Shown here: positions 57,190 through 64,000 of the stretch, piece after piece
How the letters are laid out: each line of letters opens with the position of its first letter
Numbering within the stretch: position 1 is the stretch's first letter
NCBI GenBank assembly: GCA_965248435.1
Contig: OZ252100.1
Location: forward strand, 4,480,001-4,544,000
Reading direction: 5' to 3'
Source: Candidatus Latescibacterota bacterium
GTDB lineage: Bacteria > Latescibacterota > UBA2968 > GCA-2709665
Length of the DNA stretch: 64,000 bases
Program-made: the position numbers and the translations under genes
Notes under the pieces: generated by a model
Seen by the model: the letters and a program-made list of their open reading frames with translations, nothing else
Database searches by the model: none
Told to the model about the DNA's origin: nothing

Positions 57190-60100
57190 ATGCTGGAAAA
57201 AATCATTGAAGCGAGTCTGCGGAATCGCTTTCTGATCGTGCTGGGAACGGCCTTCGCCATCGGGTGGGGACTCTACGCGATGTGGAATACCCCACTGGAT
57301 GCGATACCGGACCTGTCTGACGTACAGGTGATTATCTTCACAGAATTTCCGGGTCAGGCACCGCAGGTCGTTGAGGACCAGGTGACCTACCCGCTGACCA
57401 CGGCGATGCTGGCTGTTCCGTATGCGAAGGTGGTTCGCGGATATTCCTTCTTCGGGCTGTCGTTTGTCTACGTCATCTTCGAGGACGGAACGGATATGTA
57501 CTGGGCGCGCAGCCGGGTGCTGGAGTACCTCAACTTCGTCGCAGGTCGGCTGCCGAGCGGCGTGACCCCCACGCTTGGACCGGACGCGACCGGGGTGGGA
57601 TGGGTCTACGAGTACGTGCTGGAGGATACAACAGGGGCGCACGACCTGTCGGAACTGCGGTCGATTCAGGACTGGTACCTGCGATATGAACTCACGAGTG
57701 TGCCTGGCGTGTCGGAGGTGGCCAGCATAGGGGGTTTTGTCAAGCAGTACCAGGTGACCGTAGACCCCAACCGGCTTCTGGCGTATGACATGCCCCTGCA
57801 AAAGATCAAGACTGCGATCCGCAGGAGCAACAACGATGTGGGCGGGCGGCTGATCGAGATGGGCGAGACGGAGTTTATGGTGCGAGGGCTTGGCTACATA
57901 AAGTCTCTGGATGACATCCGGAGCATCCCGGTGGGGGTGGATGCCAACGGGACACCGGTCCGAGTCAGAGACGTCGCGACCGTAGAGTTGGGGCCGGAGA
58001 TGCGGCGCGGACTGGCCGACTGGAACGGCGAGGGAGAGATCGTCGGAGGGATCGTTGTGATGCGGTATGGGGAGAACGCCCTGGCCGTGATCAATCGGGT
58101 GCACGAGAAGCTGGAGGCACTCAAGCCCGGGCTTCCCGAAGGGGTCGTGATTCAGACGGCCTATGACCGGTCGGCCCTGATCCTTCGCGCAATCGACAAC
58201 CTGACGGAGAAGTTGATCGAGGAGAGCGTCGTTGTGGCGCTCGTGTGCATCATTTTCCTTCTGCACTTTCGGAGCGCGTTCGTTGCGATCTTCACGCTCC
58301 CGGTGGGCATCCTGATCTCCTTTACTGTGATGCTGAATCAGGGAATCAATGCAAACATCATGTCCCTGGGTGGGATCGCGATCGCGATCGGCGCCATGGT
58401 TGATGCAGCCATTGTGATGATCGAGAACGTTCACAAGCATATTGAACGCGACGGGGGGAAGAAGGAACACTGGGCGATCGTTCTGGATGCCTCCCGAGAG
58501 GTAGGTCCGGCGCTGTTCTACTCGCTGTTGATCATCACGCTTTCGTTTCTTCCGGTCTTTACGCTTCAGGCCCAAGAGGGACGGCTCTTCAAACCCCTGG
58601 CCTTTACAAAGACCTACGCGATGGCTGCGGCCGCGTTTCTCTCGATTACGATCGTCCCGGTGCTGATGGGCTACCTTATTCGCGGCCGGATTCTTCCCGA
58701 ACGGAAAAACCCGGTCAACCGGTTCCTGATCTGGGCCTATCGGCCGATGATCGATTGGGTGCTGCGCAATAAGGTGAAGACGATCGTTGTGGGCGGGGTC
58801 GTTCTGTTCGTGACGGTTTTCCCCTTTTCCAGCACGGTGCTGTCCCGGTTTTCGGAAAACCCTAGAAGCCTGAGCTACCGGGCGCTCGTAAACGTGGACC
58901 GGCTCTTTCCCCTGGAGAAGCTCGGTTCGGAGTTTATGCCACCGCTCTACGAGGGAGACCTGCTCTACATGCCGACGACGCTGCCCGGGATTTCGATCAC
59001 GAAGGCGAGGGAGCTCCTGCAGCAGACAGACAAGATCATCCGGACATTCCCTGAGGTCCACCACGTGTTCGGGAAGATCGGCCGAGCCGAGACGGCCACC
59101 GACCCGGCACCGCTGTCGATGATCGAAACGACGATTACGCTCAAACCGGAGAAGGAATGGCGTCCTGGAATGACACCAGGAAAGCTGGTGGATGATTTGA
59201 ACGAGGCCCTCCAGTTTCCGGGCTTGACGAACACCTGGACGATGCCGATCAAGACTCGAATCGACATGCTCTCGACAGGAATCAAGACCCCGGTGGGCAT
59301 CAAAGTCGTGGGGGACGATCTGGAGATCCTTCAACGTCTCGGGAGACGGATCGAGAAGGTGATGCGAAGGGTACCGGGGACACTGAGTGTGTATGCCGAG
59401 CGCGTGGCAGGGGGAAACTACCTGGACTTCGAAATCAACCGGGAGGAAGCCGCACGCTACGGGCTGACCGTCGGGGATGTACAGGACGTCATCATGTCGG
59501 CGGTCGGAGGGATGAACATCACCTACACGGTGGAGGGTCTGGAACGGTATCCGGTGAACCTGCGCTACGGGCGCGAACTGCGCGACAACCTGCCAGCGCT
59601 CAGACGCGTCCTGGTGCCAGCGCCGACCGGGGCCCAGGTGCCGATCGGTCAGCTGGCCGACATTCGGTTCAGAAAAGGGCCGCCGGGGATCAAGAGCGAA
59701 AACGCCCGTCTGAACGCGTGGGTCTATGTCGACATAAAGGGCATCGACGTTGGCACGTATGTGAAGCGCGCGCAGCAGGCCGTGCTGGAGGGCGTCGCCA
59801 TGCCGCCAGGCTATACGGTGATCTGGAGCGGACAGTATGAATACATGCAGCGGGCAGAGAAACGGCTGAAGGTCGTGATGCCCCTGACCCTGGGGATTAT
59901 CTTCCTGCTGCTGTTCCTGAATTTCCGAAATGTGATCGAAAGCCTCATCGTTATGCTCTCGCTGCCTTTCGCGCTCGTTGGCGGGATCTGGCTTATCTAC
60001 CTTCTCGATTACAACATGAGCATAGCTGTGGGCGTGGGCTTTATCGCTCTGGGAGGCGTAGCTGCAGAGACTGGCGTGGTCATGCTGATCTATCTTGACC

Positions 60101-60447
60101 ACGCCTACGAAGAGATGCGCCGAGAAAAGGGGGTCGGAATGGGCCTGAGTGACATCTACAGCGCCATCATGATCGGGGCGGTGGATCGGGTGCGGCCCAA
60201 GATGATGACGGTGACGGCGATTATGGCGGGACTGCTGCCGATTATGTGGGGCCACGGGACCGGCTCGCAGGTGATGAAGCGCATCGCCGCACCGATGGTG
60301 GGCGGGATGATCTCGTCTACTGTCTTGACGCTACTGGTCATTCCGGCGATCTATGCACTTTGGAAGGGGTGGGAACTGGGCAGGAAACCAGGGCAAGACA
60401 GAAGCGTGAAAGGAGAAGAGGGAGATGCGCAAGGCACATCCCGATAG
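57190..60447 (+). CDS. cusA: CusA/SilA-type heavy-metal RND permease
   Basis: DAIPDLSDVQVI, LGPDATGVGW, GAMVDAAIVMIEN, EFMPPL.EGDLLYMP, RPKMMT. Confidence 0.96.
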   Translation: MLEKIIEASLRNRFLIVLGTAFAIGWGLYAMWNTPLDAIPDLSDVQVIIFTEFPGQAPQVVEDQVTYPLTTAMLAVPYAKVVRGYSFFGLSFVYVIFEDGTDMYWARSRVLEYLNFVAGRLPSGVTPTLGPDATGVGWVYEYVLEDTTGAHDLSELRSIQDWYLRYELTSVPGVSEVASIGGFVKQYQVTVDPNRLLAYDMPLQKIKTAIRRSNNDVGGRLIEMGETEFMVRGLGYIKSLDDIRSIPVGVDANGTPVRVRDVATVELGPEMRRGLADWNGEGEIVGGIVVMRYGENALAVINRVHEKLEALKPGLPEGVVIQTAYDRSALILRAIDNLTEKLIEESVVVALVCIIFLLHFRSAFVAIFTLPVGILISFTVMLNQGINANIMSLGGIAIAIGAMVDAAIVMIENVHKHIERDGGKKEHWAIVLDASREVGPALFYSLLIITLSFLPVFTLQAQEGRLFKPLAFTKTYAMAAAAFLSITIVPVLMGYLIRGRILPERKNPVNRFLIWAYRPMIDWVLRNKVKTIVVGGVVLFVTVFPFSSTVLSRFSENPRSLSYRALVNVDRLFPLEKLGSEFMPPLYEGDLLYMPTTLPGISITKARELLQQTDKIIRTFPEVHHVFGKIGRAETATDPAPLSMIETTITLKPEKEWRPGMTPGKLVDDLNEALQFPGLTNTWTMPIKTRIDMLSTGIKTPVGIKVVGDDLEILQRLGRRIEKVMRRVPGTLSVYAERVAGGNYLDFEINREEAARYGLTVGDVQDVIMSAVGGMNITYTVEGLERYPVNLRYGRELRDNLPALRRVLVPAPTGAQVPIGQLADIRFRKGPPGIKSENARLNAWVYVDIKGIDVGTYVKRAQQAVLEGVAMPPGYTVIWSGQYEYMQRAEKRLKVVMPLTLGIIFLLLFLNFRNVIESLIVMLSLPFALVGGIWLIYLLDYNMSIAVGVGFIALGGVAAETGVVMLIYLDHAYEEMRREKGVGMGLSDIYSAIMIGAVDRVRPKMMTVTAIMAGLLPIMWGHGTGSQVMKRIAAPMVGGMISSTVLTLLVIPAIYALWKGWELGRKPGQDRSVKGEEGDAQGTSR

Positions 60448-60588
60448 CTGCTTGCCAAATGCTCAGATACGAGATTGAATGTCGCTGCTTCACGGGTGAC
60501 GATATCTTTTGGTGAGGGGGAATTAATGGCTTTATTTAGTGGTTGAACTTACCTGCCTACGCAGGCTTATAACCCTACTGAGGGGACC

Positions 60589-61872
60589 ATGGGAAATTCA
60601 AATGCAGAAACAGCGGACAGGGAAGGGGAGCGTCTGAATCCCCTGGACATCGCCAAGCAGCAGCTCGACCTTGCGGCGGAACGGCTCCAACTGGACCAGG
60701 CCACCCACGAGCGGCTGCGGCATCCAAGGCGGTCCTTTACCTTTTCGATTCCAACAGAGATGGATGATGGATCGGTCCAGGTTTTCACCGGTCATCGGGT
60801 GCACCACAACCTCCTCAGGGGACCGGCGAAGGGGGGGATCCGATATCACCCCGACGTGACGCTGGACGAGGTGACCGCACTCGCGATGTGGATGACCTGG
60901 AAGTGCGCCCTTGTGAATATCCCTTTCGGGGGCGGGAAAGGGGGTGTGGTATGCAATCCGAAAGAGATGACTGAAAATGAGCTGAGGCGCATGACGCGCC
61001 GGATGACATCGGAGCTTATGATCATTCTGGGTCACGACAAGGATGTGCCGGCGCCGGATGTCGGTACAAACGCTCAGACGATGGCGTGGATCCTGGACAC
61101 CTACAGCATGAATGTGGGCCACACGGTTCCGAGTGTGGTCACCGGTAAACCGCTATTTCTGGGCGGCTCCCAAGGGCGCGAGGAGGCTACATCCCGTGGA
61201 TGCGTCTTTACGGTGATGGACGCGCTCGAGAATCTGGAAATCCCGACGGAGGGGATCCGGGTGGCCGTCCAAGGATTTGGGAATGTGGGGCGGATCGCGG
61301 CCCAACTGATTGAGCGAGAGGGGGCCAGGGTCGTGGCAGTAAGCGACTCGCAGGGCGGGATCTACAACCCTAAGGGGCTCGACATGGACGCTGTCGTGGC
61401 CCACAAGCAGGAATCGGGGCAAGTCAAAGACTACCGGTCTTCGGATGCGGTCACGAACAGTGAGTTGCTGGAGTTGGAATGTGATGTACTCATTCCCGCT
61501 GCCCTCGAGAACCAGATTACGAAATCCAATGCATCAGAAATCAAGGCAAAGATCGTAGCGGAAGGAGCCAACGGGCCGACAACACCAGAGGCAGACCAGA
61601 TTCTGTTCGATCGGGGTGTTTTCATGGTTCCGGATATCCTTGCGAATGCCGGGGGTGTGACCGTTTCCTACTTTGAGTGGGTGCAGGGGCTGATGGAGTT
61701 CTTCTGGGAGGAGGAGGAGGTCAACCGAAGACTTAAGCGGATTATGCAGAAGGCTTTCGCGGAGACGCTGGAGGTATCGCGCAAAGAGAAGGTCGATATG
61801 CGTACGGCCAGCTACGAGTTGGCCGTGTCGAGGGTGGGCGAGGCCGCTCGTACGTTAGGAGTGTATCCTTAA
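60589..61872 (+). CDS. gdhA: Glu/Leu/Phe/Val dehydrogenase (glutamate dehydrogenase)
   Basis: GPAKGGIRYHP, GGGKGG, DVPAPD, QGFGNVG, EGANGP, NAGGVTVSYFEW. Confidence 0.93.
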   Translation: MGNSNAETADREGERLNPLDIAKQQLDLAAERLQLDQATHERLRHPRRSFTFSIPTEMDDGSVQVFTGHRVHHNLLRGPAKGGIRYHPDVTLDEVTALAMWMTWKCALVNIPFGGGKGGVVCNPKEMTENELRRMTRRMTSELMIILGHDKDVPAPDVGTNAQTMAWILDTYSMNVGHTVPSVVTGKPLFLGGSQGREEATSRGCVFTVMDALENLEIPTEGIRVAVQGFGNVGRIAAQLIEREGARVVAVSDSQGGIYNPKGLDMDAVVAHKQESGQVKDYRSSDAVTNSELLELECDVLIPAALENQITKSNASEIKAKIVAEGANGPTTPEADQILFDRGVFMVPDILANAGGVTVSYFEWVQGLMEFFWEEEEVNRRLKRIMQKAFAETLEVSRKEKVDMRTASYELAVSRVGEAARTLGVYP

Positions 61873-62036
61873 ATCACGGAGGCTATGGGGAAATCGGCAA
61901 ATACACGGAAGGGTCGGGTGAGGTATAAAGGCTGCGAGATGGCGCTAGATGAGAAGGACTCTGGTGTGCACGGAGGGCCACGGAAATTTCCGATTGCGGA
62001 ATGAAAGGCATCGTTTACCGCAAAGGAGTGCTCACA

Positions 62037-62246
62037 ATGTTTGGTTTCGGACACTGGGAAATTCTGATCATCGTGCTGGTCCTCGTGCTGATCTTCGGTG
62101 CCAGGCGGATTCCTGAGATGGCCAGGGGTGTGGGCAAGGGAATCATAGAATTCAAGAAGGCATTGGGTGAAGGCCGGAAAGAGGAAACTCCGAAAGAGAG
62201 TCCACAAGATCAGGCAGCCAAAGAGGAGGAAAAAGATGGAGAATGA
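62037..62246 (+). CDS. tatA: Twin-arginine translocase subunit TatA
   Basis: MFGFGHWEILII..LIFGARRIPE..RG.GKGI.EFKK. Confidence 0.93.
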   Translation: MFGFGHWEILIIVLVLVLIFGARRIPEMARGVGKGIIEFKKALGEGRKEETPKESPQDQAAKEEEKDGE

Positions 62247-62569
62247 ACCTCGTCCCCCGAAGGTGCATCAGGAATTCATAAATCGGTTTCCCAAACTCCA
62301 ACTGGCGTGGGAATCTATCGCCGAGGCCGGAAAGCAAGGCCCATTGGATGAGCGTACGGCCTGGCTCGTGACAACTGGGGATCGCCATCGGGGCACTTAG
62401 AGAGGGTGCTGTAGACGCCAGTGTGCGTAAAGGCCTCTCCCTGGGCATCTCACAGGAAGAGATCGAGCAGGTCGTCGCCCTGGCTGCGGGGACGATCGGC
62501 CTGCCTTCAACGGCGGCGGCCTTTTCCTGGGTTCAGGACGTGGTGGTCAAGAACCAGACCCCGGCTTGA
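62236..62569 (+). pseudogene. Carboxymuconolactone-decarboxylase/AhpD-family protein with +1 frameshift near 62371
   Basis: GPLDERT.WLV then LGIAIGA..EGAV...RK...GIS.EEIEQV in the next frame; length 334 nt. Confidence 0.7.
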
Positions 62570-62623
62570 GGCACGCCGGGGCGTTTTAATTTCCGTCGCT
62601 TGGTTCAACGCAAGTGACTCGCC

Positions 62624-62911
62624 CTACATCGTAATCGTCAGCTTTCTCCTGCGATCCGCTCGCGTACTGCTATGTCGGTCCTGCAGGTCTTCGACCGCGT
62701 CCTTCATCCCGCTGACTCGAAATCGATGGACCTCTTCATTTTCCCGCGTAGCCTTAAGCCTTTCGCGCGCCTGCTCAAGGCTGTCTTTATCCCTCCGCCG
62801 ACCGACACGAAGGGATTCAATGCGTTTCACCAGGTTCTGGATCTCGAACGCGGTATAGTACTTGAATGTTGCGAGGATGGCAAACGCGAGAATGGCAAGC
62901 AACCACCACAT
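62624..62911 (-). CDS. Small membrane-anchored coiled-coil protein
   Basis: N-terminal TM followed by a charged heptad region. Confidence 0.55.
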   Translation of the reverse strand: MWWLLAILAFAILATFKYYTAFEIQNLVKRIESLRVGRRRDKDSLEQARERLKATRENEEVHRFRVSGMKDAVEDLQDRHSSTRADRRRKLTITM

Positions 62912-62964
62912 AAGACCGTCCTATGAGGGTGGACCTTTCCTCCTAGAGAGCATCCGGCGTGCGA

Positions 62965-63183
62965 TCACGAATGGTACAGGAGTTGATCCAGGAACTGCCT
63001 GGACAACTGTGTTTCTTCTATCCTCGAGGAAAAATCCGTCCTGAACTTCTCTATGCCAGGGAAACGCCGGCCTGGCTTCACGATCACCAGCCAAAAGTAG
63101 AGAATCACCAGTCCAACGATCAGCGCCCCGATGATGGCATAACCAATGATTTTCCTACGCCTCAGGATCTTTCTTTGCCTCAT
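62965..63183 (-). CDS. Small single-TM protein
   Basis: MRQRKILRRRK followed by a hydrophobic helix. Confidence 0.5.
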   Translation of the reverse strand: MRQRKILRRRKIIGYAIIGALIVGLVILYFWLVIVKPGRRFPGIEKFRTDFSSRIEETQLSRQFLDQLLYHS

Positions 63184-63655
63184 TAAAGTTCCGCTTACCA
63201 TAACAGGCATCACCTCTCTTCGATGCAGCACAAACGAGAATAGCCGCACCTGCCCAAAGTCTTCGGCAGTGCGGCTATATTTTGATTTTATGAGCCTCTT
63301 CTTCTGACCCCGTGTTTGACACCAGGCCAGATGAGGACACATGATTTTTCACGCCCAGACTTCTCTGCAGATGGCCCTTCTCTGAGGGCTTTTTACAAAC
63401 TAAACTGAATCATCCATAGGCGTCCTCCCCGACAGAGGAAAATCCGCCGGCACAATTCGCTAACCGCGCTTTACAATGATAAATGTACCAGGTTATGGTT
63501 CACCGTCAAGCTGTGGAGTCTTGAAAAGTGGCTGACCAGGGGCGCCGGCGGACTGCGGATAAGATTCCCTTCATGATAATTGGAAAACGGATGAGATTTT
63601 CTTATAACATAGCTTAAAATATGATGTTGCGATCGTCTTTTCTCGAAAAACGGTA

Positions 63656-63684
63656 TTGACATCTGTTGGGATGTAGGCTATAAT
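63656..63684 (+). promoter_or_regulatory. Perfect-consensus sigma70 promoter
   Basis: TTGACA-17-TATAAT. Confidence 0.85.
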
Positions 63685-63708
63685 TTAGGCAGAAGTTGAA
63701 AGTAAGAA

Positions 63709-63884
63709 GCGTGGGCGCACCATCCGAAATGATCTGTGTTCGACCGAGCGGCTTGCGCAGCACGGAAACCATGGATCGTCAGCGTAATTTCTGACCTGGA
63801 ATACAATATTCCGAAACGGCCCGAATGGCGCTGGCCAACGGTCTGAGTGAAGGGATCACGGATGTGAGTTGCGTGCCCAGACGC
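63709..63884 (+). ncRNA. Candidate structured RNA of unrecognised class
   Basis: Nested long-range pairings GCGT/ACGC, TGGGCGC/GTGCCCA, CATCCG/CGGATG, TGATCT/GGATCA, GACCG/CGGTC plus two inner hairpins; no ORF of 60 aa or more. Confidence 0.55.
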
Positions 63885-63921
63885 AGTGCAGGAAAGGAGG
63901 CTACGTGGATTTCTGTCTAAC

Positions 63922-63979
63922 GTGGCCGTGAGCGGATAGCTTCTGATTGGTTTCTTGCTCGCGGCCGCGTTCTTTTTTG
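63922..63979 (+). terminator. Intrinsic terminator
   Basis: GTGGCCGTGAGC/GCTCGCGGCCGC stem followed by TTCTTTTTT. Confidence 0.7.
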
Positions 63980-64000
63980 TCCATATGATCTTACCTCTCA

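Follow-up and report, generated by a model that had tools for sequence, protein, structure and literature searches.

A structured small RNA family of Latescibacterota with a Met-Pro-Pro mini-frame in front of its terminator

The RNA that we report here from Latescibacterota shares its outline with 6S RNA (ssrS; RF00013). Both are stand-alone genes with a strong sigma-70 promoter whose rod-shaped products measure roughly 180–200 nt and reach high depth in RNA libraries, and of the four common housekeeping small RNAs, 6S RNA alone was not otherwise found in the genome. Unlike 6S RNA, the new RNA has neither a central bubble nor a long terminal stem, it carries a trailer with a Shine-Dalgarno site and a mini-ORF, and several copies are present in some genomes. 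Bacterial Y RNAs also join their 5′ and 3′ ends in a long stem with conserved asymmetric loops and a branched apex, and one strand of the new rod, GUCCGAAAGG, is reminiscent of what we take to be the Ro-binding strand of Y RNAs; the new RNA, however, is larger than these. An identity as Y RNA was rejected because a search for a TROVE/Ro60 gene (PF05731, E ≤ 0.001) was negative in this 97.5% complete genome and the Rfam comparison returned no Y RNA family.

With regard to the trailer, two further systems invite comparison. SgrS/SgrT, RNAIII/hld and SR1/SR1P belong to the dual-function small RNAs, which encode a small peptide as well. Like these, the new RNA extends independently from promoter to terminator and combines a structured body with a short frame behind a good ribosome-binding site; in contrast to them, its peptide is not conserved past Met-Pro-Pro and its ORF abuts the terminator. 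The second system comprises the Pro-Pro leader attenuators, in which a short ORF with consecutive prolines likewise stands directly before an intrinsic terminator, so that the progress of the ribosome could decide the fate of the hairpin. The published Pro-Pro motifs are engineered parts of hisL leader reporters (PMC8129111, PMC11611912), whereas the present motif occurs naturally and has no regulated gene behind it. Our proposed logic also reverses that of attenuation, in that a passing ribosome would melt the terminator, and there is no evident conserved antiterminator. The new family combines a structured RNA body with a natural Met-Pro-Pro mini-frame abutting a terminator. A search of the full-text literature (subscription journals lie outside its coverage) retrieved neither a published description of a small RNA from Latescibacterota nor a natural small RNA whose terminator is preceded by a Met-Pro-Pro frame.

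The transcription unit and its RNA

The gene lies at the right-hand end of the window, by which we mean the whole analysed stretch of 64,000 nucleotides (G000:C1:4480001-4544000; window coordinate = L001 coordinate + 62099). A previous sequence-only reading had proposed a strongly promoted, highly structured RNA of about 175 nt behind a perfect TTGACA-17-TATAAT promoter. Both the sequence and a promoter scan place this promoter where it had been seen (Table 1), and the start of transcription is predicted at about 63691 (A). The whole 5.67-Mb genome contains seven perfect promoters of this kind, or eleven if spacers of 16–18 nt are admitted. Among the homologues, 21 of 26 copies show a TTGAC(A/T/G)-like –35 element and a TAnnnT –10 element at the same distance, as judged by a regular expression. 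Together with the covarying rod described below, the 12/12 match of the promoter upholds the description of the RNA as strongly promoted and highly structured.

The proposed length of about 175 nt is adequate for the rod but not for the gene, as the unit continues for about 100 nt past 63884. Beyond this point follow a Shine-Dalgarno site, a 9-codon frame, a terminator that ends near 63978 and then a second terminator. A simple terminator scanner missed the first terminator, probably because its hairpin has an inner stem and a long loop. A tandem second terminator was also seen in several relatives, including L012, L015, L016, L031 and L032. The gene downstream of the RNA is convergent and encodes a protein of 220 aa that combines a bifunctional-nuclease domain with a UVR motif. 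Given this convergent neighbour and the tandem terminators, the RNA is not a leader; the locus is an independent gene with a consensus sigma-70 promoter and a stand-alone transcript of roughly 290 nt.

Upstream of the gene, at 63316–63388, the window holds a second promoter-like site (TTGACA-18-CATGAT, 10/12 matches) together with what follows it. About 30 nt after this site there is a small terminator-like hairpin (63376–63388) with a T-run, which may delimit a tiny transcript or be due to chance.

Table 1 Features of the RNA gene in the window and metatranscriptome contigs aligned to it (contigs record presence in RNA libraries; their ends and depths do not give true RNA ends or levels)
Feature	Window coordinates	Strand	Details
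Sigma-70-type promoter	63656–63684	+	TTGACA 63656–61, 17-nt spacer, TATAAT 63679–84; 12/12 consensus matches
Rod	63712–63883	+	Long interrupted stem, ten short covarying helices, three-way apical junction; model R1 147.1 bits
Apical hairpin A	63778–63795	+	GTCAG 63778–63782 / CTGAC 63791–63795; R1 helix 9, compensatory change in 4/6 pairs
Apical hairpin B	63798–63812	+	GGAATA 63798–63803 / TATTCC 63807–63812; R1 helix 10, compensatory change in 4/4 pairs
Shine-Dalgarno AGGAGG	63895–63900	+	4 nt before start codon; motif conserved in homologues
Mini-ORF	63905–63931	+	GTG GAT TTC TGT CTA ACG TGG CCG TGA (MDFCLTWP*); predicted translation
Intrinsic terminator 1	63924–63978	+	GGCCGTGAGC (63924–33) pairs with GCTCGCGGCC (63957–66), T-run 63970–78; from fold of 301-nt transcript and sequence
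Terminator 2, start	63994–64000	+	CCTCTCA ... TGAGAGG TTTTTTT; remainder past window end (L001 1895–1922)
X18 contig	63699–63887		203 nt, depth 1141.7; 13 further unmatched 5′ letters
X19 contig	63699–63888		204 nt, depth 907; 13 further unmatched 5′ letters
X20 contig	63702–63898		197 nt, depth 5.7
X21 contig	63718–63878		163 nt, depth 3.2

Part of this stretch is present in 23 public runs. We examined the contigs of four metatranscriptome runs from three studies, each of which contributed one short contig with 95–99% identity to the window. Together, the four contigs cover 63699–63898, and no contig lies over the 150 nt before the promoter, over the trailer or over the downstream gene. The comparison covered RNA runs, and the contigs attest to presence in RNA libraries; the small-share RNA runs X20–X23 are uninformative on habitat. 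The RNA foreseen by the sequence-only reading is thus represented in metatranscriptomes of three studies, where rod-covering RNA occurs as short stand-alone, isolated contigs of 163–204 nt. The contig ends near 63691 and at the base of the rod hint at the mature ends, but weakly at best. That the trailer has no cover was also considered as a sign of its removal; this idea was dropped, since the contigs of relatives may simply break there.

Membership, distribution and fold of the rod

The RNA had been assigned to no recognised class, and this assessment proved correct in the Rfam search. None of the families of Rfam 15 gave a relevant match at E ≤ 1 in the interval 60000–64000, where neither a tRNA nor a tmRNA was found either; the sole match of the region was an irrelevant terminator-like SurA hit (63218–63280, E = 0.055). 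Likewise, a comparison of 11 homologue loci with Rfam yielded no relevant family and two unrelated weak matches only. At the level of BLAST, a DNA search of 41 relatives returned three short weak matches. One of these (L003) was a chance match in a coding region, and through another a clear homologue was recognised in G001, the sister species. Two strands of the rod, CCATCCGAAA (63720–29) and GGATGTGAGTTG (63860–71), are conserved according to pattern matches in relatives. A motif composed of two conserved strands was found in 5 of 53 genomes of the order, and these five sequences were used to build the covariance model R1.

Full-length matches to R1 were obtained in 20 of the 53 genomes of the order and in both of its families (f1, 6/21; f2, 13/31). 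In genus g3 (same family), R1 matched none of 15 genomes; the five complete genomes gave only fragments with E > 0.2, and sporadic pattern matches resembled gene starts. Within a sample of the phylum, R1 matched 16 of 151 genomes, all of them from families f1–f4 of one Latescibacterota class, and none of 36 genomes of other families. The exact module pattern of Shine-Dalgarno motif and Met-Pro-Pro frame was present in 42 of 168 phylum genomes, again only in f1–f4, and a reversed control pattern had no match. Some genomes contain two or three copies of the module, which in G045, G123 and G142 stand at separate places. When the mini-ORF pattern was searched over all species genomes, at least 119 stretches were retrieved, most of them chance matches at gene starts of high-GC organisms. 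The rod was present in 9 of 80 loci examined among the pattern matches listed, a count that does not bound the distribution outside the phylum. We have very little doubt that the RNA family is real. The locus founds an uncatalogued family which, as far as searched, is confined to one class of Latescibacterota. In another genome, two Met-Pro-Pro modules were seen in tandem, 116 nt apart (G118:C30:11863-12015).

A canonical second copy resides in the same genome as the window (G000:C1:5268001-5268174; L030 1501–1674; R1 41.5 bits). It has a TTGACA-17-TATGTT promoter, a Shine-Dalgarno motif and an ATG CCA CCG GAC opening of a 26-codon frame, and it is located between an hpt-like gene and a same-strand gene for a 287-aa RpoS-like sigma factor. 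G038 and G107/G093 have orthologues of this sigma factor next to the RNA. The copy in the window, a paralogue, has kept the Shine-Dalgarno motif, the start codon, the ORF length and the stop-in-stem geometry and has lost the Pro-Pro codons. In general, the neighbouring genes differ between genomes, and the downstream genes differ or are convergent at most loci. Across 40 loci, an RpoS-like sigma factor gene was found within 1.5 kb of the RNA at four (from three lineages), a ferritin gene at four, a BFN nuclease gene at two and hpt at two. The sigma-factor neighbourhood is suggestive but sparse, and gene neighbourhood was abandoned as a functional clue because even the most frequent neighbours reach no more than 4/40. 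Downstream of the RNA in G001, a highly structured stretch gave a weak match to a group II intron domain (L014 1043–1114; RF00029, 28 bits, E = 0.1); an intron may have inserted next to this RNA gene.

The fold was evaluated by energy and by covariation. In the minimum free energy (MFE) structure of 63700–63890, about 63709–63746 pairs with 63839–63884, which reproduces the long interrupted stem of the sequence-only reading, and the stem is capped by both of the hairpins that it had named, the positions of which are exact. The MFE of this 191-nt stretch corresponds to a z-score of –1.46, and 23 of 200 shuffles folded equally well; the 301-nt transcript reached –2.55, with none of 100 shuffles as good. 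As the thermodynamics of the rod alone is weak, it is covariation that places the fold beyond chance. In an alignment of 21 homologues to R1, 89.4% of cells were paired, compared with 33–47% when the 3′ partners were slid by 1–3 columns, and compensatory changes affected 35 of 46 pairs, values reached by none of 500 shuffles. Another set of 21 homologues gave 89.0% paired cells and compensatory changes in 31 of 46 pairs; both alignments were fitted to R1, so these figures lean towards the model. An independent MAFFT/RNAalifold analysis of five sequences showed compensatory change in 12 of 57 pairs.

From the base upward, the consensus consists of a closing helix, an asymmetric loop with the 3′ strand GAGUUG or a near variant, an invariant helix CCRUCCG/CGGAYGG, a GAAA loop with the helix GGUCC/GGACC, a variable middle rod and a three-way apex that bears hairpins A and B. 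Hairpin B (GGRAW...WUYCC) is the best-conserved hairpin, with 96% of its cells paired, and it is also present in the divergent relatives L203 and L204. A large central bubble is absent from the consensus and from each of 21 individual homologue folds, in which small internal loops only were seen. The homologues range from 155 to 194 nt and differ in length by non-multiples of three. Taken together, the first ~175–190 nt of the transcript fold into a covarying rod with the conserved internal loops GAAA and GAGUUG.

The trailer and its Met-Pro-Pro frame

In all 26 copies, a Shine-Dalgarno-like motif is followed by a start codon at a spacing of 3–8 nt; many of these copies are close kin (ten stem from one genus), so that this and the following counts overstate independence. 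The motif lies 5–11 nt past the end of the R1 match. In 23 of the 26 copies the frame opens with Met-Pro-Pro, encoded in the relatives as ATG CCN CCN; in G004 there is an additional in-frame ATG. Three copies deviate: the window copy (MDF), G008 (MPL) and one of the G045 copies (MAN). Positions 4, 5, 7 and 8 of the frame are C in 23–24 of 26 copies. By comparison, position 6 is A in 17, G in eight and T in one, and position 9 is G in 11, A in eight, T in six and C in one. This restriction of variation to third positions indicates selection on the proline codons and not on a pairing motif. The fourth codon mostly specifies Asp, Gly, Asn or Ile, and Glu, Val, Tyr and Met also occur.

Past Met-Pro-Pro, the peptide is not conserved. 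The sole recurrent codons are 8–9 (CGG CYG/CCG), which overlap the 5′ arm of the following hairpin (GCGGYYG); the length varies from 8 to 32 codons, and the peptide frame shifts between G001 and the second G000 copy. The frame and the terminator meet in several ways. In the window, the stop codon (63929–31) lies inside the 5′ arm of the terminator stem. The same holds for families f3 and f4, in which the frame has 8–9 codons, and the 9-codon forms (G119, G107, G093, G096, G143 and the window copy) all place their stop codon in this arm as well. Some lineages have it before or beyond the arm. Genus g6 and G002/G004 have two frames in succession: the first traverses an initial hairpin and ends a few bases short of another Shine-Dalgarno-ATG, from which the second frame extends to the terminator.

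The 16S rRNA of the genome ends in ...GGATCACCTCCTTTCT, which contains the anti-Shine-Dalgarno sequence, and Shine-Dalgarno-like motifs precede 1494 of 4175 long ORFs, compared with 692 for a control position, so that ribosome loading on the trailer is to be expected.

The module was also encountered without the full rod. In two other Latescibacterota genomes (L051, L052), an SD-ATG-CCA-CCT-GG...GGCGGCTG module with a 32-codon frame is preceded by another kind of RNA, which R1 fails to detect and whose promoter is of the sigma-54 type (TGGCATGGAA(A/T)TTGC). In L207 (G116), a minimal form consists of a short hairpin with a conserved GCGAGTTGAC strand directly before a Shine-Dalgarno motif, an MPPD frame and a terminator; the full rod is missing, and a coding region reaches close.

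Interpretation of the composite RNA

We read the locus as the gene of a composite small RNA, in which a rod body of possibly protein-binding function is joined to a translation-coupled 3′ trailer, and we rate this reading at somewhat better than even odds (roughly 0.55). The rod is probably the functional body of the RNA and, since its conserved nucleotides sit in asymmetric internal loops, may be a protein-binding scaffold. The trailer is probably translated, judging from its Shine-Dalgarno motif, start codon and Pro-Pro frame. PPD, PPG and PPN are among the strongest contexts of EF-P-dependent arrest, and Met-Pro-Pro followed by Asp, Gly or Asn is a ribosome-stalling context unless EF-P helps. 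A ribosome arrested at Met-Pro-Pro would leave the terminator hairpin intact; a ribosome completing the frame would reach the stop codon in or beside the terminator stem and melt the stem. In this manner, translation capacity (EF-P, prolyl-tRNA) would bear on what becomes of the 3′ end, be it termination at the first terminator, trimming as far as the rod or the stability of the RNA. The window copy might escape Pro-Pro control, as it has retained the geometry without the prolines. PPN is used as a standard arrest motif (PMC11611912). The proposed coupling agrees with the finding that loss of EF-P in E. coli causes premature termination at intrinsic terminators of polyproline mRNAs (PMC5021804), and with the engineered Pro-Pro leader reporters (PMC8129111, PMC11611912).

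The arrest-sensor step itself is a tentative suggestion, which we would at present sooner doubt than believe. Similarly speculative is the fuller version of this idea, according to which a new abundant RNA class would be made from a precursor with an EF-P- or proline-dependent Met-Pro-Pro translation sensor, its rod possibly being a bubble-less substitute for 6S RNA. If it were true, the level, the 3′ end or the release of the rod RNA would report the translation capacity of the cell. A mini-frame acting as an arrest sensor would give the engineered polyproline leader reporters a counterpart in nature and link the fate of an RNA to translation in a new way. Large, conserved and abundant RNAs without a known job are rare and have formerly led to new biology. 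The present RNA is shared across one class of an uncultured marine group, covaries strongly and reaches high depth in RNA libraries from the ocean; at the minimum, the locus provides a well-supported new family that is ready for Rfam.

The features of the trailer could also be explained if the transcript were the messenger of a micro-peptide, MPPxxxxR(L/P)..., and the rod a 5′ UTR that stabilises it or controls its translation and survives as a decay fragment. The strong Shine-Dalgarno motif, the start codon and the wobble-only variation of both proline codons are in agreement with such a messenger, as is the occurrence of the module behind other upstream RNA, namely in the sigma-54 promoter units of L051/L052 and behind the short hairpin of L207. 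The peptide, however, is a poor candidate for the conserved product: the two codons that recur beyond Met-Pro-Pro overlap the hairpin arm GCGGYYG, neither length nor frame is maintained, and the window copy encodes an unrelated octapeptide and yet keeps the rod best and has the strongest promoter. Moreover, conservation is far stronger in the rod than in the peptide, and a mere stabiliser would have no need of the rod's conserved loops. We therefore consider a micro-peptide messenger unlikely.

A function as 6S RNA was suggested by the size and the rod shape, which the sequence-only reading had called 6S-like. Size and shape indeed fit, but the structure does not: no central bubble appears in the consensus or the 21 folds, and the 6S model does not match. 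In this explanation, the rod would be the functional 6S RNA of the lineage, or one of two, and would bind the sigma-70 holoenzyme despite its atypical shape. What speaks for it, apart from size and shape, is the consensus sigma-70 promoter, the high contig depth and the RpoS-like sigma factor gene beside the RNA at 4 of 40 loci from three lineages, together with the lack of a detectable 6S RNA in the genome. The Rfam 6S model (RF00013) matched neither the window region at E ≤ 1 nor anything in the genome at E ≤ 10, and a scan of 114 genomes of the class at E ≤ 0.001 was likewise negative. SRP RNA, RNase P RNA and tmRNA were all found elsewhere in the genome, which leaves 6S RNA as the missing housekeeping RNA. 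In other classes, the Rfam model gave two sub-threshold matches, L209 1501–1680 (f9; 43.2 bits) and L210 1501–1676 (f12; 33.5 bits), which look like ordinary 6S RNAs. Model R2, built from these two 6S-type RNAs, detected 7 genomes of families f7, f9 and f12 and was without a match in the genome of the window and in the 114 class genomes. The class that holds the new RNA thus lacks a recognisable 6S RNA. A complementary distribution of the two RNAs was considered and dropped as an argument, since R2 also misses 28 genomes of other families and the test is therefore non-discriminating.

Against 6S stand the architecture and the context of the RNA. The lack of a large central bubble argues that the rod is not a 6S member, and its apex is a three-way junction with two 5–6-bp hairpins instead of a long terminal stem. 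The 6S covariance models do not match the rod, the conserved, translated-looking trailer is foreign to 6S RNA, some genomes have 2–3 copies of the RNA, and the sigma factor neighbour is absent at 36 of 40 loci. On this evidence, a 6S RNA in disguise appears quite improbable. Elsewhere in the genome, another promoter-to-terminator RNA follows accA (G000:C1:~709458-710050); its last ~200 nt fold into a long hairpin with no obvious central bubble.

Compared with the composite reading, it is far harder to maintain that the RNA is the leader of a downstream gene and controls it in cis as a riboswitch or leader-peptide attenuator. The layout is that of trpL/hisL-type attenuators, in which an intrinsic terminator immediately follows a short ORF with repeated identical codons: a tandem-codon ORF that abuts or enters a hairpin with a T-run was found in the 23 of 26 copies with Met-Pro-Pro, and the window copy retains the geometry only. 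Furthermore, a same-strand sigma factor gene follows the second G000 copy and the G038 copy. Regulated genes of the same operon, however, are absent; the next gene in the window is convergent, two tandem terminators come after the ORF, and at other loci the neighbours are unrelated across genomes or convergent. Antiterminator pairing, assessed by the duplex energy between the rod tail and the terminator arm, is not general. Its z-score averages –0.5 over 17 copies, with G002 (–2.6), G004 (–5.4) and G005 (–2.3) standing out, and a conserved antiterminator was dropped on these grounds, being strong in three copies only. A riboswitch was rejected because the window shows no gene behind the RNA on its strand and the surroundings vary at other loci. 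For the window copy, the leader is largely refuted, and for the family as a whole we hold it to be very improbable.

Finally, we give practically no credence to a chance structure or a minus-strand protein gene: although a 107-aa open frame (63678–64002) overlaps the RNA on the minus strand and the folding energy alone is unremarkable, this frame has no Pfam match and is not conserved as a protein in comparison with the equivalent frame of G002 (E = 0.062), the lengths of the homologues are at odds with a reading frame, and the covariation follows the RNA helices.
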